Position numbers and translations under genes: made by a program. DNA of 64,000 bases from Pseudomonadota bacterium (GTDB lineage: Bacteria; Pseudomonadota; Gammaproteobacteria; Steroidobacterales; Woeseiaceae): contig JACZSM010000007.1 of assembly GCA_022574185.1 (NCBI GenBank), positions 1,307 to 65,306 on the forward strand, read 5' to 3'. The notes under the pieces were generated by a model. The model made no database searches, was not told where the DNA came from, and saw only the letters and a program-made list of their open reading frames with translations. This document shows positions 6,434 through 29,954 of this stretch, one piece after another (the stretch's first letter is position 1; the number at the start of each line of letters is the position of its first letter).

Positions 6434-9085
6434 ATGCCGCCTGACAGTAACGAAACTTCCGGCGTCCGGCATCGCAGACCGCGTGTCGGCGAGCGCAATC
6501 GCGGAGCAGCCGACGCATCGCAGATCAAAATTGCGGTTGGCCTGCAGAACCTGGATCCGGCCAATTTTCGCGAACAACTTCAAACTTACATCGACGATAT
6601 GCCCGATGCGGCTGGCTGCGACGCAGCGTTTGTCACGTTGTTCAACGACAGTGGGGCCCATTTCGACGCTGTGATCGCAGCGACAAACGGCTTCGCCCAG
6701 TGCAAGCCTGCGAATCTGCATGGAGAGGCACTGGATAGTTGGCCGTGGCTGAGCAAGCGTCTGGAGCACCTCAAGGTTATCGAGGTCGCCGATACACTCA
6801 AGGGCTCAAAAGTCGCCAGGGCGGAACTTGAGCGCCTGGCAGAACTGCATATTGGTTCGGTGTTGATTATGCCTTTCTCGGTTCACGGCGAAATCGCCGG
6901 GTTTCTCGCGCTGGCGAACGAACGTCCTGTTGATAGTTGGGACGCCAGTCTTCACCTCTTGCTAAAACTTTTCAGCGCGTCGCTTGCCTCGGGCCTTGAG
7001 AGTGTTCACGACCAAAGCGTGCTGAACGAACTCCACGAGCGCAACGAGCTTATTGCGGCAACGGCCAACGATGGCATCTGGGATTTTAACGGCGAAACCA
7101 AGCGCATCAATTTGTCGAGACGCTGGAAAGCGATGCTCGGTTACGATATTGATGATGAAGACGTGCTGCTGGACTGGTACCACCTCGTGCATCCAGATGA
7201 CATGGCGCGCGTACAGTCCAAAATGCGTGATCATCTCGAAGGTAAGACGTCGTTCTTCGAATCGGTGCACCGCATGAAACATCAGAACGGTGACTGGCGC
7301 TGGATGAGCAGTCGTGCCAAGGCGGTTCTCGATGAGAACGGCAGGCTGCTCAGAATGCTCGGTGTCGAAGTCGACATCACCGAAAGAAAGCTTTACGAAG
7401 AGGCCTTGTTTCGCGAGAAGGAGAGCGCACAGATAACTTTGCAGTCAATCGGTGATGGCGTGATCACGACCGATGCGAACTGCAATGTCGAGTATGTCAA
7501 TCCCGTCGCAGAAGAACTGACGGGATGGAAGGTCGACGACGCCAATGGACGACCGATAGACGAAATTTTTCGAGGTTTTCATGAAGAAACCTGCGAACCG
7601 CTCGAGAACCCGCTGGCGGTGTCAATTCGGCGCAACCGGCCGATCAAATCTGTGCGTCCGACGTTGCTGATCCGTCGCGATGGCAATGAACTCTATATCG
7701 AGAGCACGGCTTCGCCGATCAGGGACGGCAAGACCAAAGTCACCGGTGGCGTTCTCGTCTTCCATGATGTCAGCGAGTCGCGTGAGTTGCATCGAAAACT
7801 AAGTTACCACGCCAGTCACGATATTCTAACGGGCCTGGTCAACCGTCGAGAACTGGAAAACCGGCTCGAGCGCGCGCTGAAAAGTGCCAGGGCGCATGAA
7901 ACGTCGTATGCGCTTTGCTATCTGGACCTCGATCAATTCAAGATGGTTAACGACTCCTGCGGCCACAGCGCAGGTGATGCATTATTACACCAGCTTGGTG
8001 CGCTGCTAAAGTCGAAAATTCGCTGGCGAGATACACTCGCGCGCATGGGCGGTGATGAATTTGGCGTGCTTCTGGAGAGTTGCTCGCTCGATGAGGCGAT
8101 GGAAACGGCCGAAGCGCTGCGTTCGGCGATAAGCGAATACAAATTCATGTGGGACGATCGCAGTTTCCGCCTGGGAGTGAGCATCGGCGTTGTGCCAATT
8201 ACGGCGGAAACCGAAGATGTTGCGGGGCTGCTGAGTGCGGCCGACAGTGCTTGCGCGGCGGCGAAGGAAGCAGGGCGCAATCGCATTCACAGCTATCAGG
8301 AAAACGATATCGATCTTATGCGCCGCCGCCGCGAGATGCAGTGGGCTGCGCGGATTAACAACGCGTTCGATGAAGACCGCTTCGAATTATTTCGCCAGAC
8401 GATTCTGCCGCTCCAGACCGAAGAAAAAGGCGCTCACTATGAAATATTATTGCGCATGCGGGATGAAAACGGCGGTATTATTTCGCCCGGACTGTTCATC
8501 GAGGCTGCCGAACGTTACGGCATTACTCCGAGAATCGACCGATGGGTGATTCGCAGCGCGTTCCGCTGGTTGGTTTCGGAAGCCGACGAACGCGAACGAC
8601 TTACTATGTGTTCGATTAACTTGTCGGGCCAGAGTCTTGGCGATGAGAAGTTTCTGCCATTCGTCATCGACCAATTCCAGATGAGCGGTATCGACGCGAC
8701 GAAAATTTGTTTCGAAATTACCGAAACAGCCGCTATCGCCAGTTACTCGAAGGCCAACCGATTTATCAATGCCCTGAAAGAACTGGGCTGCATGTTTGCG
8801 CTGGATGACTTCGGTACTGGGCTGTCATCATTCGGCTATCTCAAGCATTTCCCGGTGGATTTCCTCAAAATCGACGGTAGTTTCGTCAAAGAAATTCTGC
8901 ATGATCCGATTGACCGTGAGATGGTTCGGTCGATCAATGAGATCGGGCATCTGACCGGCAAAAAAACGATCGCTGAGTTCGCCGAAAACGAAGAAATCAT
9001 CACCATGTTGCGTGGTATGGGTGTGGATTATGCGCAGGGCTATGGAGTGTCGGAACCCAAGAGTGTAACTCGTGCGGTGGCCTGA
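6434..9085 (+). CDS. GAF-PAS-PAS-GGDEF-EAL cyclic-di-GMP signalling protein
   Basis: GGDEF motif RMGGDEFGVLL. EAL-domain motifs are YEILLRM, DDFGTGLSSFGYL and KIDGSFV. Two PAS segments are present (GIWDFNGETKRI..., LQSIGDGVITTD...). The start is set at ATG 6434; the track start 6305 is a TTG inside a promoter-like region. Confidence 0.9.
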   Translation: MPPDSNETSGVRHRRPRVGERNRGAADASQIKIAVGLQNLDPANFREQLQTYIDDMPDAAGCDAAFVTLFNDSGAHFDAVIAATNGFAQCKPANLHGEALDSWPWLSKRLEHLKVIEVADTLKGSKVARAELERLAELHIGSVLIMPFSVHGEIAGFLALANERPVDSWDASLHLLLKLFSASLASGLESVHDQSVLNELHERNELIAATANDGIWDFNGETKRINLSRRWKAMLGYDIDDEDVLLDWYHLVHPDDMARVQSKMRDHLEGKTSFFESVHRMKHQNGDWRWMSSRAKAVLDENGRLLRMLGVEVDITERKLYEEALFREKESAQITLQSIGDGVITTDANCNVEYVNPVAEELTGWKVDDANGRPIDEIFRGFHEETCEPLENPLAVSIRRNRPIKSVRPTLLIRRDGNELYIESTASPIRDGKTKVTGGVLVFHDVSESRELHRKLSYHASHDILTGLVNRRELENRLERALKSARAHETSYALCYLDLDQFKMVNDSCGHSAGDALLHQLGALLKSKIRWRDTLARMGGDEFGVLLESCSLDEAMETAEALRSAISEYKFMWDDRSFRLGVSIGVVPITAETEDVAGLLSAADSACAAAKEAGRNRIHSYQENDIDLMRRRREMQWAARINNAFDEDRFELFRQTILPLQTEEKGAHYEILLRMRDENGGIISPGLFIEAAERYGITPRIDRWVIRSAFRWLVSEADERERLTMCSINLSGQSLGDEKFLPFVIDQFQMSGIDATKICFEITETAAIASYSKANRFINALKELGCMFALDDFGTGLSSFGYLKHFPVDFLKIDGSFVKEILHDPIDREMVRSINEIGHLTGKKTIAEFAENEEIITMLRGMGVDYAQGYGVSEPKSVTRAVA

Positions 9086-9089
9086 GGGG

Positions 9090-9461
9090 ATGAAGAATAT
9101 GACTGTTCGTAGTTTATGGCCATTGCTGCTGCTGGCCGTCACGGTGTCGGGCGGCGCCGATGAGCGGCATCCCTGTTCAGCTGCTGAGCTCAGCAAATAC
9201 AAGTTACAGATCAGCCAATCATTTTTTGCCAATTGGCAGGCAGAGCGAGGTGCCGAATCACTGCATTGCACGGTCGTCATTGACCAGAATTTCCGCGGTG
9301 AAGTCCTGAATGTCGAGCTTGAAGATTGCGGTGAAGCGGTTGCGCTGCATAAGGCGGTCGAAAACGCTGTTTATCTGTTGTCGCCGCTACCGCGGCCGAA
9401 AAATCGCTCGTGTTTTGTGCGTACTATCCGCGTGCATCTGCTGCGTCGCGCCCCGGAATAA
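9090..9461 (+). CDS. Small secreted protein, TolA/TonB C-terminal-domain-like
   Basis: Signal peptide MKNMTVRSLWPLLLLAVTVSGGA. The remainder follows the TolA C-terminal pattern (YKLQISQSFFANW...LHCTVVIDQNFRGEVLNVEL...SPLPRP). Alternative starts are 9072 (GTG) and 9099 (ATG). Confidence 0.4.
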   Translation: MKNMTVRSLWPLLLLAVTVSGGADERHPCSAAELSKYKLQISQSFFANWQAERGAESLHCTVVIDQNFRGEVLNVELEDCGEAVALHKAVENAVYLLSPLPRPKNRSCFVRTIRVHLLRRAPE

Positions 9462-18919: not shown

Positions 18920-20410
18920 CTAGTCGTACGCGTTCTCGACGTCAGGATACAACTCATCGAGCGGCATGGATCGGCCGTCGGCTTGCACGATACGGCAGTG
19001 ATAACGGCGTAGTCGACGCGGTTCAGCGACGCCGCAAGAGTGCGCGATGATGCCGATTTCTTTACGCATCGTGTCCGAAAAACGTTTGACGCGCTCAGCT
19101 TTGTCTGCCGGAACGAGGCCGCGCTGCAATTTCCGGTCGTGTGTCGTTACACCGGTTGGGCAGGTGTTCTTGTTGCATTGCAATGCCTGGATACAGCCGA
19201 GGGCGAACATGAAGCCGCGTGCAGAATTCACGAAATCGGCACCCATGCACAATGCCCAGGCAGCATCCGACGGATTGATCAGCTTGCCGCTTGCAACGAC
19301 CTTGATACGATCTCGAAGTCCATAGTGCATCAGTTTGTCGACGACCAGCGGCAGGCTTTCCTTGATCGGTAGGCCGACATTGTCGATAAGGCTCATCGGC
19401 GCGGCACCCGTTCCACCGTCGCCGCTGTCCACCGTGATGAAGTCGGGCGCGCTCTCGATGCCGCGTTGCCGAATAAGATTGAACAGATCATCGAGCCAGC
19501 CATAGGCACCAATCACGGCCTTGAAGCCCGTCGGCCGGCCGGACACATCGCGAATATGGTTAATCATGTCGAGCAAGTCTTCGGCAGAATTGATCTCGGG
19601 ATGCCGGTTGGGGCTGATCGAGTCTTCACCCTCAGGAATACCGCGAATCATCGCAATTTCCGCTGTAACCTTTGCGCCGGGCAAGATGCCGCCTTTACCT
19701 GGCTTGGCACCCTGGCTCAGCTTGAGCTCGATCATCTTGACCTGTGTGTTCGACGCGACGTCGCGCAGCTTCTGGTCGTCGATACTGCCATTCTCATCGC
19801 GCACACCGTACTTGGCGGTGCCGATCTGAAATACGATATCGGCGCCACCCTCGAGGTGCCAGGGTGAAACGCCACCTTCGCCTGTGTTGAGCCAAATTCC
19901 GGCCATGCGTGCGCCATTCGACAATGCCAGAACCGCGGGTTTTGATATCGCGCCATAACTCATCGCCGACACATTCAGAATGGACTTTGCTACATAGGGT
20001 TCACGCGCATAGGGGCCAATCGTTACAGGTTCGGTGGGCACCGCATCACATTCGAGCGTCGGGTATGGACAGTTGACGAATATTGCCGTGCCGGCGGGAT
20101 TCAGATTCAGGGTCGAACCGAAAGCGACCACATTGTCGACACCTTTCGCGGCGCGATACACCCAGGAGCGCTGCGCGCGGTTAAAAGGCATCTCCTCGCG
20201 GTCGAGGGCAAAGAAGTACTGACGAAAAAATTCACCCAGGTGTTCAAAAAGGTTGCGAAAGCGCCCGACGACTGGGAAGTTGCGCCGGATCGTGTCCTTC
20301 GTCTGCGTGACGTCAATGATATACGTGACGACGATCGTCAGGATTGTGACGCCGGCCGCCAAAACGAGCAGGTTCGTCAGTACCTGCAGGACTGAGAACG
20401 TATTATCCAT
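18920..20410 (-). CDS. FMN-binding glutamate synthase domain-2-like protein with N-terminal TM anchor
   Basis: 496 aa with the N-terminal helix LVLAAGVTILTIVVTYIID. GltB FMN-domain-like motifs are GEGG, KLSQGAKPGKGG and VDSGDGGTGAAP. Confidence 0.75.
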   Translation of the reverse strand: MDNTFSVLQVLTNLLVLAAGVTILTIVVTYIIDVTQTKDTIRRNFPVVGRFRNLFEHLGEFFRQYFFALDREEMPFNRAQRSWVYRAAKGVDNVVAFGSTLNLNPAGTAIFVNCPYPTLECDAVPTEPVTIGPYAREPYVAKSILNVSAMSYGAISKPAVLALSNGARMAGIWLNTGEGGVSPWHLEGGADIVFQIGTAKYGVRDENGSIDDQKLRDVASNTQVKMIELKLSQGAKPGKGGILPGAKVTAEIAMIRGIPEGEDSISPNRHPEINSAEDLLDMINHIRDVSGRPTGFKAVIGAYGWLDDLFNLIRQRGIESAPDFITVDSGDGGTGAAPMSLIDNVGLPIKESLPLVVDKLMHYGLRDRIKVVASGKLINPSDAAWALCMGADFVNSARGFMFALGCIQALQCNKNTCPTGVTTHDRKLQRGLVPADKAERVKRFSDTMRKEIGIIAHSCGVAEPRRLRRYHCRIVQADGRSMPLDELYPDVENAYD

Positions 20411-20421
20411 GGCTACCGGCC

Positions 20422-20928
20422 TTACTTCAGGAAACGTCTGGCGACAATGCTGTCCGCGCTTAGTTTACCAGCACCGGCAACGACCAACGGTATCAGCATT
20501 GCGATGAATAGCAGCGGCACGCGGTAGTTGCCGGAGCCGTCTTTCGGCGTTATACGATAGCCTTCCCACAACTCACCCAGGCTGCTCCATTCTGCGGGCC
20601 AGTGCACGCCCGAGATGGCGACGATGCTGATGATGATCAGCGTGAATGCCCAGAACCGTGTGAACAGGCCCAGCAGCAGTCCTGCAGAGCCGAGTATTTC
20701 GAACCAGGTCGCCATAAACCAGCTGACGTCGACCGGAATCACGTTGAACGGAAATATAAAGTTGTCCTGAACATTGCCGAACCAGTTCTGTCCGTTGAAT
20801 TTACCTATTCCGGCTTTGCCGAATTCCCAAGCCATCAGCAAGCGAATCAGTAGCAGGCCGGCGCCGTAGTTTGCGGCGCAGTCCAGCCAGTCGGTAATGC
20901 GCTTGTAGTATGCAAGCAGCTTATTCAT
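20422..20928 (-). CDS. DoxX family membrane protein (HvfX-like position)
   Basis: 168 aa with 4 TM helices. It lies 12 nt after the DUF2063 gene. This arrangement is typical of MNIO/DUF2063/DoxX RiPP-type clusters. Confidence 0.65.
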   Translation of the reverse strand: MNKLLAYYKRITDWLDCAANYGAGLLLIRLLMAWEFGKAGIGKFNGQNWFGNVQDNFIFPFNVIPVDVSWFMATWFEILGSAGLLLGLFTRFWAFTLIIISIVAISGVHWPAEWSSLGELWEGYRITPKDGSGNYRVPLLFIAMLIPLVVAGAGKLSADSIVARRFLK

Positions 20929-20940
20929 CGTCGTGCTCCA

Positions 20941-21714
20941 TTAGTTTGGCGCTCTTGTGCCAGTCAGAATTTCCAGTTGTCGCATTTCTTTGAGTAGTGT
21001 TGCGCCATGCCTGAGTAATGAATCGACAGCGGCGTATTCGATCTTCGCGGCCAGTTCAAACAGCAGGGCCTCGCCAGACAGATTCTTATCGTTGCTCGCG
21101 ATAGAGTCGAGCAGCTGCGCCGTCATGGTATTCAGCTCGAGAAAGCCGACTTTGTCATCGTCGCCACGATACACCGCGAGAAAGATGGGCTGCGCTTCGG
21201 GCGCCTGAGGCAAAAATCCCGGCGAAATTCGGTGCACAGGATATTGATACGAATACACCCAGGTCAGAACAGACTTTACCGGCACGTTAGCCAGCAGGTC
21301 GCCGTCCGGATCGACTCCTTGTAAATCGTTCGAGTCCTCCGAAATCGACAACGCTATCTCAATGTATTCGTAGTGCGCGAGTTCGATCAGAAACGGAAAG
21401 TCGTCATCGCGCAATTCGTACTCGTTTTGCAGAAAGTCGAGAAATTCTCGCGGTAATTGCAGGAAATACGGCGTTTTGGCTCTGTGTTTTTGCATGAACA
21501 AGCGAATCATGCGGTTCCACTTCGCGGTTGAATGTAGCTTCTTCAGCACCGGAAACATGGTCGCGAGCAGGCTGCGCAGGTTGTTGAAGAACAGTTCGCG
21601 ATAAATGGCCATGCGTCGATCTTCGATGCCGGCGGGCGCCGGTGCGTTTTTCGGATCGCGAATGTGTGCGGCAAAAGCGAACTGTTTTTTCTGAAAATCA
21701 AGTTGCTCAGCCAT
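20941..21714 (-). CDS. DUF2063 family protein (HvfC/BufC-like RiPP partner protein)
   Basis: N-terminal pattern [14 protein letters not shown]...[31 protein letters not shown]...W. The start is trimmed to ATG 21714, overlapping the upstream stop by 8 nt. Confidence 0.7.
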
Positions 21715-22561
21715 TGACGGCCTCCGGTTGCCTGGCGTCACGTTGCAATTCGCGAATGTGGCTGAGCTCGTCGAGTAATTCCGCGACTGGTGGAAAATTG
21801 AAATCGCGCTCGAGCAATGTGGGAACCGGCCCGAAATGCGCGTAAGCGTCAGCGAGCAAGTTCCAGCTCTGCTCGTCGACAGCGGCGCCGTGTGTATCTA
21901 CCCGCAAGTCCGGAGCCTCGACGTAATGGCCAGCCTGGTGAAAGTAGCGAATTCGGTCGGCGGGCATTCTGACCATGAATTCATGCGCGTCATAGCCGTG
22001 GTTGATGCTGTTGACGATGATGTTGTTGATGTCGAGCATCAGGTCGCAGTCGGCTTCCTGCAGAACCGCAAGGAGAAAATCAATCTCGCTCATTGATGCG
22101 TCAGTTGGCGCGTAGTACGAGACGTTTTCCAATGCGATGCGCTGCTCGAGGATGTCCTGCACCCGCCTGACACGAGCGGCGACATACTTGACGGCTTCTT
22201 CGGTAAAAGGAATCGGCATTAAGTCATACAGGTGTCCATCATCCCCGCAATAACTCAAATGTTCCGAGTACATAAGGATATTGTGCGCGGCCATGAATGC
22301 CTTGATGTCACGCACGAGTTGCTCGTCGAGAGGTACAGGGGCGCCGATCGAGAGCGACAGGCCGTGAATCAGGAATGGATATCGTTCGGTGAAGTAGCGA
22401 AGTTTCTTGCCAAGAGCGCCGCCGACATGAATCCAGTTCTCAGGGGCAATCTCCATGAAATCGATTTTGCCCTGGGGAATGTCTTGCAGCTTGTCGGCCA
22501 GCGGCCGGCGCAGGCCAAGGCCGGCGCCGCTTACCGGGTATTGCGGGTCTGAGTCACTCAT
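21707..22561 (-). CDS. DUF692 / MNIO family (multinuclear non-heme iron oxidase) protein
   Basis: Pattern GAGLGLRRP...FMEIAPENW...IHGLSLSIG...SEHLSYC...ALENVSYY...DINNI...YFHQAGH...VDTHG...LLERD. The start is trimmed to ATG 22561; the track extension overlaps nth. Confidence 0.8.
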
Positions 22562-22604
22562 ACAGCACAAGACCTTATCGGGGCCGCGATTATTACATTG
22601 CAGA

Positions 22605-23240
22605 TCATGACAGTTCTTTACGCCGGTATTCGCACCATTCGATGATTTTGCATTCGCCGCACAGCGGTTTTCGCGCCTTGCAGACATAGCGCCCGTGCAG
22701 GAGCAACCAGTGATGTGCGTTTTTCTTGAATTCGTCAGGCGTGAAGCGAGTCAGGCGCTCTTCGACGGCCAGCGGTGTCTTGCCAGTCGCCATGCCGGTG
22801 CGATTGGAGACGCGGAAAATGTGGGTGTCCACAGCGATCGTCGGTTGGCCGAAGGCCGTGTTGAGTATGACGTTGGCGGTCTTGCGGCCAACGCCTGGCA
22901 GTCCCTCGAGTTCCTCACGAGTTTGTGGCACCTCACTGTCGTATGCATTGATCAGAATTCTGCAGGTCTTGATGATGTTTTCAGCTTTGCTGTTATACAG
23001 GCCGATCGTGCGGATGTAGGGCAATAGTCCCTCGACACCGAGTTCAAGAATGGCCACCGGTGTATTCGCAACAGGATACAGTTTGTCGGTTGCCTTGTTG
23101 ACGCTGATATCGGTGGCTTGTGCGGAGAGGACCACGGCCACGAGCAACTCGAACGGGCTGTCATAGCGGAGTTCGGTGTCCGGATTCGGGTCGAGCGCAC
23201 GCAGCATGGCGTATATTTTCGTGCGTTTGTCCCTGTTCAC
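22605..23240 (-). CDS. nth: Endonuclease III
   Basis: 211 aa, HhH-GPD motif [11 protein letters not shown], and a C-terminal 4Fe-4S loop [17 protein letters not shown]. It directly follows rnfE as in E. coli. Confidence 0.95.
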
Positions 23241-28241: not shown

Positions 28242-29954
28242 TTACTTGATACGCATTCCTGGTTCGGCGCCATCTTCCGCCGATGGCAAGAAGATGTCCT
28301 TCGCGCTGCGTTTCGATTGTTCAACCATATTGTCGACTTGTGCAGGCTCGATACGCGTCAATAATGGCTTGAATTTTAAAATTCTGGTGCCGAGCAATGG
28401 CTTGGATGCGCAATACCAGTGCCATTCGTCCTCACCGAAAAACGACCGTGCGTCGTCGGCGACAGAGGGAATGACCGGTGTCAGGTAGATCATCAGGCTG
28501 CGGAACAGATTGAGTCCCTGGGTGCAGACGGCTTGCACTTCGGCCAGTTGGTTCTCGTCCTTGATCATGACCCAGGGCTTTTCCCGGTCGATGTAACGAT
28601 TGGCATCGTCGGCGAGACCCATGATCCGCCGCATCGCTTTAGAGTATTCACGACGCTCATAATGTGCAGCGATTTCCTCAGATGCGTCGGCAAGGGCATT
28701 AAACAGATCAGGCTCAGGCAGCGCATCGGCGAGTTTGTCGTCGAAGCGCTTGTTGATGAATCCCGCGCATCGGCTGGCGATGTTGATCAACTTGCCGATC
28801 AGGTCCGCATTGACCTTCGCAATGAAATCATCGAGATTGAGATTGATGTCTTCTATGGTCGGACCGAGTTTAGCTGCGTAGTAGTAGCGCAGGTACGCCG
28901 GATGCAAATTATTCAGGTAGGTTCGCGCGTTGATAAATGTGCCGCGCGACTTGGACATCTTTTGTCCATTGACGGTTAGAAAGCCGTGTGAAAATACACT
29001 CGTTGGCGTCCGAAATCCTGAACCCTGCAAAACAGCTGGCCAGAACAGCATGTGAAAATACATGATGTCCTTGCCAATGAAATGATATAGCTCGGTGTCA
29101 TGCCCGGGACGCCAGTACTCGTCGAAGTCGAGGTCGTCCCGACGGTCACAAAGGTTTTTGAAGCTTGCGGCGTAGCCGATCGGGGCGTCCAGCCATACGT
29201 AAAAATATTTGTCGTCGGTGCCGGGAATCCTGAAACCGAAGTAAGGCGCATCTCGGGATATATCCCAGTCTCGCAGTCCGGCATCGAACCACTCCTCAAG
29301 CTTGGCGACAACGCTCTTTTCAAGATCCGCTTCATCAATCCAGTCACGCAAGCGCTTTTCGTATTTGCTCAATTTGAAAAAGTAATGCTCCGATTTACGC
29401 GTGACCGGCTTCGTACCCGATAGCACCGAGATTGGGTCAATAAGGTCGGCAGGTGTGTAGGTCGCGCCGCAGACTTCACAGGCGTCACCATACTGGTCCT
29501 CACTTTTACAGCGTGGACAAGTACCCCGCAGGAACCGATCTGGCAGGAACAAACCTTCTTTTTCGTCGAAGGCCTGCTCGATCGTTTTGGTGTAGATGTC
29601 ACCGGTCTTGCTCAACGCTTGAAACATCTCGATGACGAGGGCTTCGTTTTCGGGCGAATGCGTTGTGTAATAGTTATCGAATTCGATGCCGAATGCGGAA
29701 AAGTCTTTGAGGAACTCCTTCGTGATCTCCGCGGTGAGTACTTCAGGAGTGATGCCCAACTCCCGGGCCTTGAGCATGACCGGAGTACCGTGAACATCGC
29801 TGGCACAGACGTAGGTGCAAGTGTGGCCACGAAATTTCTGAAATCGGGCCCAGATGTTGCCTTGCAGGTATTCGACGAGGTGACCCATATGGATCGAGCC
29901 ATTTGCATACGGCAAGGCGTTTGTAACGAGTATTTTTCGTGGCCGATCGAGCAT
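28242..29954 (-). CDS. metG: Methionine--tRNA ligase (short form)
   Basis: HMGH motif ([13 protein letters not shown]), KMSKS motif and zinc knuckle [18 protein letters not shown]. At 570 aa it lacks most of the C-terminal tRNA-binding domain (see findings). Confidence 0.95.

Follow-up and report, generated by a model that had tools for sequence, protein, structure and literature searches.

An hvfBCX enzyme cluster without an adjacent hvfA gene in Woeseiaceae, and a promoter-like motif shared with stand-alone hvfA operons

Copper-binding peptides modified by multinuclear non-haem iron oxidative enzymes (MNIOs), namely oxazolins and bufferins, form a recent and very large class of RiPPs (peptides that are ribosomally synthesized and then modified after translation), and genome mining for them depends on a precursor gene that lies adjacent to the enzyme genes. 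What, then, does a locus represent in which the enzyme genes stand alone? This question is raised by a 64,000-nucleotide (nt) stretch of contig JACZSM010000007.1 (hereafter, the window), which derives from a member of Woeseiaceae, a family described as among the most abundant bacteria of marine sediments, and which carries an MNIO gene (hvfB) followed by hvfC and hvfX directly downstream of nth. In the oxazolin system of nontypeable Haemophilus influenzae (PMC11252979), which also goes by the name of the Buf_EGKCG/oxazolin biosynthetic gene cluster (BGC) family (PMC12452194), these genes are ordered hvfA-hvfB-hvfC-hvfX, hvfA being the precursor gene; the mmrABC/bulbicupramide cluster of Microbulbifer is of the same kind (PMC12538549). 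The hvf locus of the window is an ordinary enzyme family in an informative and previously undescribed genomic configuration: hvfA is missing from this and related loci, the enzymes are conserved, and hvfB is preceded by a promoter-like motif of a class also found before stand-alone hvfA operons elsewhere. The features on which the argument rests are the following.

21707-22561, minus strand: hvfB, encoding the MNIO (formerly DUF692) of 284 amino acids (aa); 43 nt past nth
20941-21714, minus strand: hvfC, encoding a partner protein with a DUF2063 N-terminal domain and an NGO1945_C domain; 257 aa, as also called in relatives
20422-20928, minus strand: hvfX, encoding a DoxX-family membrane protein of 168 aa; 12 nt past hvfC
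18920-20410, minus strand: gene for an FMN-binding glutamate-synthase-domain protein with an N-terminal transmembrane helix; 496 aa, PF01645 E=2.9e-86; 11 nt past hvfX
22605-23240, minus strand: nth (endonuclease III), the upstream neighbour; TIGR01083, 276 bits against a cut-off of 212
22570-22597, minus strand: extracytoplasmic function (ECF)-sigma-type promoter-like motif TGTAATAA-N15-GGTCT, within the 43-nt nth-hvfB spacer

The coordinates and gap sizes given in a preliminary description of this DNA (20422-22604, MNIO start at 22561, 43-nt spacer, gaps of at most 12 nt or an overlap within the cluster) are correct. The nth stop codon occupies positions 22605-22607, giving the 43-nt spacer, and hvfC, whose ATG is at 21714, shares 8 nt with the end of hvfB. 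The adjacency of nth and the hvf genes is kept in nearly all related loci.

The trio had been ascribed to the enzyme sets of both the HvfB/HvfC/HvfX and the bufferin BufB/C families, and profile searches supported the former, each product scoring above its NCBIfam cut-off. The hvfB product reached 419 bits with HvfB NF003818 (cut-off 360; Pfam PF05114, E=1.3e-98), the hvfC product 285 bits with NF050145 (cut-off 142; PF09836 and PF22106 were also matched) and the hvfX product 122 bits with NF050144 (cut-off 80; PF07681 was also matched). The bufferin half of the assignment was not borne out: the window MNIO scored 249.5 bits with the BufB model NF050167, below the cut-off of 310, and no DUF2282 or Buf_6/12Cys precursor open reading frame (ORF) was found in the window. 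The nearest solved structure for the window HvfB is 3BWW, an unannotated DUF692 entry (E=1.5e-77), and the window HvfC aligns to the DUF2063 entry 3DEE (E=3.5e-9). All seven motifs predicted to bear metal ligands (HG, SEH, ENV, DINN, HQAGH, DTHG and ERD), which the preliminary description had judged to be intact, are present in columns at least 95% conserved across 88 MNIO homologues drawn from precursor-containing and precursor-less loci alike. The predicted ligand residues (H66, E100/H101, E145/N146, D177/N179/N180, H208/H212, D222/H224 and E251/D253) are conserved to at least 95% in both the canonical (hvfA-containing) and the precursor-less group. The nearest homologues (80-97% identity) come from marine metagenomes, and their names, if any, are Woeseiaceae or unclassified Gammaproteobacteria. 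By each sequence criterion tested, the window genes are members of the HvfB, HvfC and HvfX families.

No precursor gene was detected in the window. It contains no EGKCG-repeat ORF in any frame, and neither EGKCG repeats nor the NPF..L..GY leader had a match in the window or in the precursor-less clade loci described below. A hidden Markov model (HMM) built from 19 genuine HvfA genes gave no match at E<10 among the six-frame stop-to-stop segments of at least 20 aa of the 64-kb window. Because the defining precursor gene is absent beside the MNIO gene, the locus is not a complete oxazolin/Buf_EGKCG cluster.

Three candidates for a hidden substrate were considered and rejected. A heuristic screen of the window for small signal-peptide, Cys-containing ORFs outside long genes yielded just one, at 9072-9461 on the plus strand, together with one other, overlapping ORF; the 9072-9461 product (129 aa, signal peptide, 4 Cys) has no precursor features, and nothing ties the ORF to the hvf genes. 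The MNIO ORF can be extended upstream in frame (22562-22687; 42 codons, 5 Cys), which might have represented a fused precursor. This extension is interrupted by a stop codon in three relatives that are 90-97% identical to the window (L006, L007 and L009), and it is therefore non-coding, an artefact of the overlap with nth. The third candidate, the product of a DUF1841 gene that precedes the hvf genes in many relatives, has no signal peptide, is also encoded upstream of hvfA in canonical clusters and is absent from the sub-lineage of the window.

Is the missing gene a peculiarity of this contig? Related loci were collected from context look-ups of close homologues, from a scan of species-representative genomes (80 loci, 60-83% identity) and from a metagenome scan with the HvfA leader (80 more); they were mapped by tblastn and the HvfA HMM, and 10 kb on either side of each locus was examined. 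In the window, the hvf genes end a minus-strand gene series whose upstream part consists of the following genes.

28242-29954, minus strand: metG, the start of the series metG-rnf-nth-hvf
28196 down to 23237, minus strand: rnfA, rnfB, rnfC, rnfD, rnfG and rnfE, identified from ORFs and synteny; upstream context, outside the hvf unit

The pyruvate dehydrogenase genes aceE, aceF and lpdA converge on the hvf cluster from its opposite side. The rnf-nth context had been described as unusual, but the order rnfABCDGE-nth-(DUF1841)-hvfA-hvfB-hvfC-hvfX is widespread in gammaproteobacteria, including Thiogranum, Thiohalophilus, Thiohalobacter, Thioalkalispiraceae and many unnamed lineages, and dozens of metagenome contigs, as well as a cultured species, Elongatibacter sediminis, have the rnf-nth-(DUF1841)-hvfABCX synteny too. 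Of the 24 genome loci outside Woeseiales/Steroidobacterales, 22 have hvfA directly upstream of hvfB; one of the two exceptions (L083) is cut by a contig end, and the other (L067) is genuine. Among the Woeseiaceae/Steroidobacteraceae loci, none of the 65 has hvfA at the locus or within 10 kb on either side. When the MNIO sequences were placed in a neighbour-joining tree, those of the precursor-less loci grouped as a single clade, and close relatives of the window MNIO (60-68% identical) reside in canonical clusters with an EGKCG-repeat signal-peptide precursor. The same arrangement in 65 independently assembled loci means that the absence of the precursor gene is not an assembly artefact. The preliminary description was thus right that the cluster has no precursor gene within it or nearby.

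The simplest history is that hvfA was lost or relocated once, at the base of the Woeseiaceae/Steroidobacteraceae clade, and that DUF1841 was lost later, in the window and its nearest relatives (L006-L009). It is because this sub-lineage also lost DUF1841 that the spacer shrank to 43 nt.

Several observations were made on the gene order of the relatives. In most lineages, whether or not hvfA is present, the DUF1841 gene (138 aa) separates nth from the hvf genes (e.g. L001 9553-9969 and L004 9491-9907), and its product, which has no signal peptide and 1-2 Cys, looks cytoplasmic. In the window, DUF1841 is deleted, and positions 22562-22604 hold what are apparently its last few bases with the promoter motif downstream. 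Four Steroidobacteraceae-like metagenome-assembled genomes (MAGs; L054, L078, L086 and L088) have metG, an rnfB-like ferredoxin gene, nth and hvfB, with rnfA, C, D, G and E missing; they retain the nth-hvfB adjacency and a promoter motif of the form GGTAATAT-N-CGGTCC. Since these rnf-poor loci keep the adjacency, the linkage of the hvf genes is with nth rather than with the Rnf complex. The locus L067 (2118-2456), from a Thioalkalivibrio-labelled MAG, is the sole precursor-less hvfB outside the Woeseiales/Steroidobacterales clade; upstream it has tandem TTGAATCTTGAAT-type repeats and, further upstream, an inverted DUF1841 and a doxX, and it appears to be a separate rearrangement. In one Woeseiaceae MAG (L061 9080-9865), an ORF for a 261-aa signal-peptide protein is inserted between DUF1841 and hvfB, and a GTAATA-N16-GGTCT motif lies upstream of the inserted gene, not directly before hvfB.

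The enzymes left behind are maintained by selection. Pairwise ratios of nonsynonymous to synonymous substitution rates (dN/dS) between the window and ten relatives are 0.05-0.17 for hvfB, 0.10-0.30 for hvfC, 0.06-0.33 for hvfX and 0.03-0.11 for the FMN oxidoreductase gene, and these values are within the same range as those of nth and rnfE. At 100 of the 284 MNIO positions, all named metal-ligand motifs among them, conservation is at least 95% in both the canonical and the precursor-less groups, and mean column conservation is equal in the two. Just one position of HvfB (82, F to L) and three of HvfC are fixed differently between them, and all of these changes are conservative. As judged from these substitution patterns, the hvf enzymes of the window are working genes under purifying selection, and the precursor-less enzymes show no sign of decay, nor of the rapid run of substitutions that a switch to another substrate would be expected to bring. 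Because there are almost no clade-specific substitutions in HvfB or HvfC, we argue that the type of substrate is unchanged. These data also bear on the possibility that the DUF692 protein belongs to a non-RiPP clade that never has a precursor: the precursor-less loci are indeed monophyletic, but with almost no fixed substitutions relative to the HvfA-associated relatives, the enzyme does not look like a non-RiPP one.

How are these genes expressed? The motif in the nth-hvfB spacer, which reads ATGTAATAATCGCGGCCCCGATAAGGTCTT at 22570-22597, fits the consensus G(T/A)AATA-N16-GGTC(T/C). ECF-sigma promoters consist of a -35-like hexamer, 16-17 nt and a GTC-containing -10 element. The pattern GWAATA-N16-GGTCY has a single match in the 64 kb of the window, compared with none in 100 shuffles. 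An alignment of upstream regions revealed tGTAATAa-N15-GGTCtg upstream of hvfB with invariant spacing in 57 distinct precursor-less loci; three Lentisalinibacter-type loci (L056, L062 and L068) have a GAAATA variant, GTGAAATAT-N16-GGTCC, and the promoter-like motif is present ahead of hvfB in every precursor-less clade locus with upstream sequence. A looser regular expression had 73 matches in 4.1 Mb of collected sequence (both strands together), approximately 62 of which are upstream of hvfB or hvfA. Some loci keep the exact 16-nt spacing and both half-sites with the motif placed 50-110 nt from the ATG and well past the DUF1841 stop, and Steroidobacteraceae loci without DUF1841 or without most rnf genes have it as well. 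Canonical hvfA genes also have elements of this kind, mostly of the form (G/A)GAAACTTT-N16-GTCGTA; a strict regular expression matched 27 of 87 canonical hvfA upstream regions (0.9 expected), and the GTAATA form itself is found ahead of hvfA in some canonical clusters (L173, L160, L140 and L081). We infer that the motif in the spacer is a functional promoter of the ECF-sigma type, and the hvf operon of the window probably has its own inducible promoter. Scanning detected no sigma-70-like promoter or terminator between nth and hvfB, and an Rfam search of the region was also empty. Read-through co-transcription with rnf-nth, as proposed in the preliminary description, may occur but is not needed, because a conserved ECF-type promoter motif sits in the 43-nt spacer.

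The same motif class was encountered at hvfA genes that stand alone. Ten loci have a stand-alone hvfA with no MNIO gene within the flanks of 2-10 kb (L111, L128, L169, L109, L133, L171, L174, L178, L179 and L180). Six independent lineages, all uncultured gammaproteobacteria, share a common organization, in which aroE-hemB is followed divergently by an ECF sigma gene, a gene for a DUF3379 anti-sigma factor, hvfA and a terminator-like hairpin. Ahead of each of the six operons lie a -35 element of the type G(A/T)AA(T/C) and, as the -10 motif, GGTCT. Their positions and, for four of them, the motifs upstream of the sigma gene are as follows.

L169, 8525-10384: sigma-DUF3379-hvfA operon
L171, 8675-10396: sigma-DUF3379-hvfA operon; motif TGAAACT-N-GGGTCTA
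L174, 4465-6342: sigma-DUF3379-hvfA operon; motif CTGTAATAA-N16-GGTCTA
L178, 3562-5112: sigma-DUF3379-hvfA operon; motif CTGAAATAA-N-GGGTCTA
L179, 8672-10276: sigma-DUF3379-hvfA operon
L180, 8724-10366: sigma-DUF3379-hvfA operon; motif CTGAAATAT-N-GCGGTCTG

An ECF sigma factor usually drives its own gene from the promoter type that it recognizes. As the same motif class precedes these ECF sigma genes, the motif before the orphan hvfB is most simply explained as a target of this sigma family, and DUF3379 may serve the hvf regulon as its dedicated anti-sigma factor. GAAATA variants are found ahead of the sigma gene in L178 and L180, and the nearest tetranucleotide neighbours of L178 are L068, L062 and L056, in which GAAATA likewise precedes the orphan hvfB. 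This apparent covariation of the -35 variant between the stand-alone L178 and the three precursor-less loci is suggestive. The tetranucleotide correlation of L169 with the Woeseiaceae centroid is high (r=0.95), and a Wenzhouxiangellaceae locus scores similarly, so that this classification of the stand-alone loci is not decisive.

From this evidence, we lean, with somewhat more confidence than doubt, towards a split hvf system in which the precursor is encoded in trans under the same sigma factor as hvfBCX: the sigma-anti-sigma-hvfA genes would lie beside hemB and hvfBCX beside nth, with one promoter type linking the two. The ancestor would have carried hvfA, with a Sec signal peptide, an NPFxMxELxxGYM leader and EGKCG repeats, between nth/DUF1841 and hvfB, as many gammaproteobacteria still do. 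One event at the base of the Woeseiaceae/Steroidobacteraceae clade, either a deletion or a relocation, would have taken hvfA from the locus, and the later loss of DUF1841 in the sub-lineage of the window would have left a 43-nt spacer with the promoter motif alone. An ECF sigma factor that recognizes G(T/A)AATA-N16-GGTC(T/C) would transcribe hvfBCX on demand. HvfC-type partners are thought to recruit the peptide substrate (PMC11252979, PMC12538549); HvfB, as a multi-iron oxidase, and HvfC, as such a partner, may act together on the Cys residues of an HvfA-type peptide encoded elsewhere, which would become heterocycles that bind Cu(I) (oxazolone/thioamide or 5-thiooxazole) ahead of Sec export. 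The likeliest site of the precursor would be an autoregulated ECF sigma-DUF3379 anti-sigma-hvfA operon beside aroE-hemB with the same promoter motif, and such operons are predicted to be present in the lineage of the window. Stand-alone EGKCG precursor genes have been reported, with the suggestion that they may be modified by MNIOs at another locus, and only 67 of 2,583 genomes with EGKCG precursors have no MNIO (PMC12452194).

Several points weigh against the split system. No HvfA gene was found within 10 kb on either side of the loci in genomes assigned to Woeseiaceae/Steroidobacteraceae, and neither the window nor these flanks of the Woeseiaceae loci contain a homologue of the sigma or DUF3379 gene. 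The HvfA-leader profile search and the search with the stand-alone L169 HvfA had 7,259 and 1,003 matches, of which the best 120 each were listed; none of the named proteins among these 240 HvfA-like matches, most of which are unnamed, has a Woeseiaceae label, the names listed being Thiogranum, Xanthomonadales, Elongatibacter and 'Gammaproteobacteria', whereas Woeseiaceae labels are frequent among the MNIO matches listed. The metagenome scan, eight HvfA context look-ups and the names of cluster members likewise gave no Woeseiaceae label, nor did any contig carry both an HvfA match and a Woeseiaceae hvfB locus. Tetranucleotide similarity, which does not discriminate at the family level, did not place the sigma-DUF3379-hvfA loci taxonomically. 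The window promoter is read from sequence, and in the sub-clade of the window GGTCT stops 8 nt short of the hvfB start codon, which would require either a nearly leaderless transcript or translation of a read-through mRNA that starts from the AAGG overlapping the motif. Furthermore, TGTAATAA overlaps the DUF1841 stop codons in some relatives, which could add to the conservation of this element there. Of the three explanations offered in the preliminary description, a substrate encoded elsewhere nevertheless fits best, even though no trans precursor was found in the 10-kb flanks of a Woeseiaceae genome.

The most substantial competitor, which we regard as unlikely, is that after the loss of hvfA, HvfB and HvfC of this clade came to act on another, unrecognized substrate, either a family of Cys-containing secreted proteins or peptides or a larger protein, and that they might work jointly with DoxX and the FMN oxidoreductase. 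The absence of hvfA in the 65 loci and their flanks, the lack of a Woeseiaceae-labelled HvfA among the matches listed and the retention in the operon of a membrane DoxX and an FMN oxidoreductase, which could serve another redox role, are all consistent with such a shift, and approximately 4,000 MNIOs of the same sequence cluster have no adjacent recognized precursor, while some MNIO groups have none identified at all (PMC12452194). However, the clade-specific substitutions are few and conservative even in HvfC, the substrate-recruiting protein, conservation equals that of the HvfA-associated enzymes, the promoter class is common to hvfA and sigma-DUF3379-hvfA operons, and hvfA-containing canonical clusters have DoxX and the FMN gene as well. 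The strongest form of this idea, in which no HvfA-like peptide exists anywhere in Woeseiaceae/Steroidobacteraceae and an HvfB/HvfC/DoxX/FMN-oxidoreductase module under an ECF stress promoter modifies an unrecognized substrate, seems to us a little less likely again; if it were true, this would be the first HvfB-type MNIO shown with a non-EGKCG substrate. A different kind of rival concerns expression only, is compatible with a precursor in trans and is weighed apart from the substrate-level readings: the hvf cluster may have no dedicated regulation and be the tail of the rnf-nth operon, transcribed by read-through, with the motif being no promoter but, for example, what is left of the 3' end of DUF1841 together with a ribosome-binding region. 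The 43-nt spacer with no detected sigma-70-like promoter or terminator, the coincidence of TGTAATAA with DUF1841 stop codons in several loci and the fact that the AAGG overlapping GGTCT is the only plausible Shine-Dalgarno sequence in the sub-clade of the window would all fit this account. It does not explain the exact 16-nt spacing and both half-sites where the motif lies far from the DUF1841 stop, its persistence in Steroidobacteraceae loci without DUF1841 or most rnf genes or the occurrence of the same bipartite motif before ECF sigma and hvfA genes elsewhere, and we consider it improbable.

The two remaining readings can be set aside with much greater assurance. That the cluster is a decaying relic, functionless since the deletion of hvfA, finds its sole support in the absence of the precursor gene; 65 species-level loci, with identities as low as approximately 65%, have kept their reading frames intact, the only breaks being apparent frameshifts in hvfC and the FMN oxidoreductase gene of the long-read assembly L001, whose hvfB is intact. 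With dN/dS of 0.05-0.3 and all metal ligands conserved, the selection analysis effectively refutes this reading, which is very improbable. Still more improbable is a precursor overlooked within the cluster, as a tiny ORF, in an overlapping frame or as an N-terminal fusion, or lost by misassembly. The 42-codon extension with its 5 Cys could be taken as such a fusion, but it is broken by in-frame stops in relatives and all MNIO homologues are 283-284 aa long; the gaps of 43, 12 and 11 nt, or an overlap, are too short, the six-frame HMM and motif scans were negative, and the identical arrangement recurs in many independent assemblies. The very small unannotated ORF and the corrected assembly that the preliminary description had raised are both effectively excluded on these grounds.

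The gene downstream of hvfX, which the preliminary description had not counted in the cluster, is likely the last gene of the hvf operon. Orthologues of its FMN-binding product, 62-70% identical, are encoded within 11 hvfA-containing clusters, in some of which they lie between hvfA and doxX-hvfB, and the gene also follows hvfX in 23 precursor-less loci. The following orthologues in other loci are examples.

L058, 12315-13844: FMN protein orthologue
L105, 6556-8016: FMN protein orthologue
L106, 1352-2809: FMN protein orthologue
L107, 3535-4992: FMN protein orthologue
L145, 10952-12418: FMN protein orthologue

The membrane-anchored FMN protein may be an accessory redox enzyme of the hvf pathway. 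The main text of the MNIO survey does not mention a glutamate-synthase-like FMN protein (PMC12452194).

Variation was also seen in the other hvf components of the collected loci. Two metagenome loci (L100 9983-11715 and L107 292-1709) have three tandem hvfA copies upstream of one hvfB. Some HvfA proteins (L058 9392-9973, L079 9465-9962 and L111 10001-10450) contain an EF-hand-like insert, MDADGDGKVTKDEF, between EGKCG repeat blocks, in agreement with the Buf_EGKCG/EF-hand fusions mentioned in PMC12452194; the L111 gene is a stand-alone copy downstream of sucA-sucB-lpd. The hvfX position is occupied by two types of DoxX protein, the 168-aa type of the window and a type of approximately 200 aa with the motif FLxPLALRLYLxPxFWxAG (e.g. 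L033 11668-12258, L041 11689-12279 and L059 6648-7238), which is commoner in canonical clusters; both are found within Woeseiaceae.

These results have consequences for genome mining. In Woeseiaceae and Steroidobacteraceae, the enzyme half of the system stands alone at the locus under strong selection, so that pipelines relying only on the neighbourhood would score such loci as orphans or skip them. A shared promoter motif can link the parts of split RiPP clusters, and here it predicts both the site of the missing precursor, beside aroE-hemB, and its regulation. The recurrent FMN glutamate-synthase-like gene is a candidate accessory enzyme for hvf clusters.

In comparison with the oxazolin system, the window has the same three non-precursor genes scoring above the HvfB, HvfC and HvfX cut-offs, the same metal-ligand motifs and an hvfB-hvfC translational overlap. 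It differs in having no hvfA in the cluster or in the 64 kb, as do the 65 clade loci with their flanks, and in the appended FMN glutamate-synthase-like gene; the -35 element of the window clade, G(T/A)AATA, also differs from the GAAACT of most canonical hvfA genes. Monophyletic loss of the precursor with the enzymes kept, the rnf-nth-DUF1841 synteny and the recurrent FMN member appear to be new relative to PMC11252979, PMC12452194 and PMC12538549, as far as these sources were covered: the main text of PMC12452194 mentions neither a clade-wide monophyletic precursor loss nor this synteny nor an FMN oxidoreductase, two of these context terms are also absent from PMC12538549, and the parts of the supplementary tables of PMC12452194 that were examined mention neither Woeseia nor Steroidobacter. 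The promoter motif that links orphan enzyme operons with sigma-DUF3379-hvfA operons would likewise be new, although these papers were not searched for a promoter link. The bufferin BGCs (bufA-bufB-bufC with DoxX, regulated by an ECF sigma factor and the NrsF anti-sigma factor; PMC11626156, PMC12452194) are unlike the window in that its BufB score is below the cut-off, in that it has no DUF2282 or Buf_6/12Cys precursor and in that the anti-sigma factor beside the stand-alone hvfA genes is DUF3379 instead of NrsF. They share with the window the architecture of MNIO, DUF2063 and DoxX genes, an expected copper-related function and, if the stand-alone hvfA operons belong to the same system, the linkage to an ECF sigma/anti-sigma pair. 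The survey of PMC12452194 shares with the present case both stand-alone precursors and thousands of MNIOs without a recognized neighbouring precursor.

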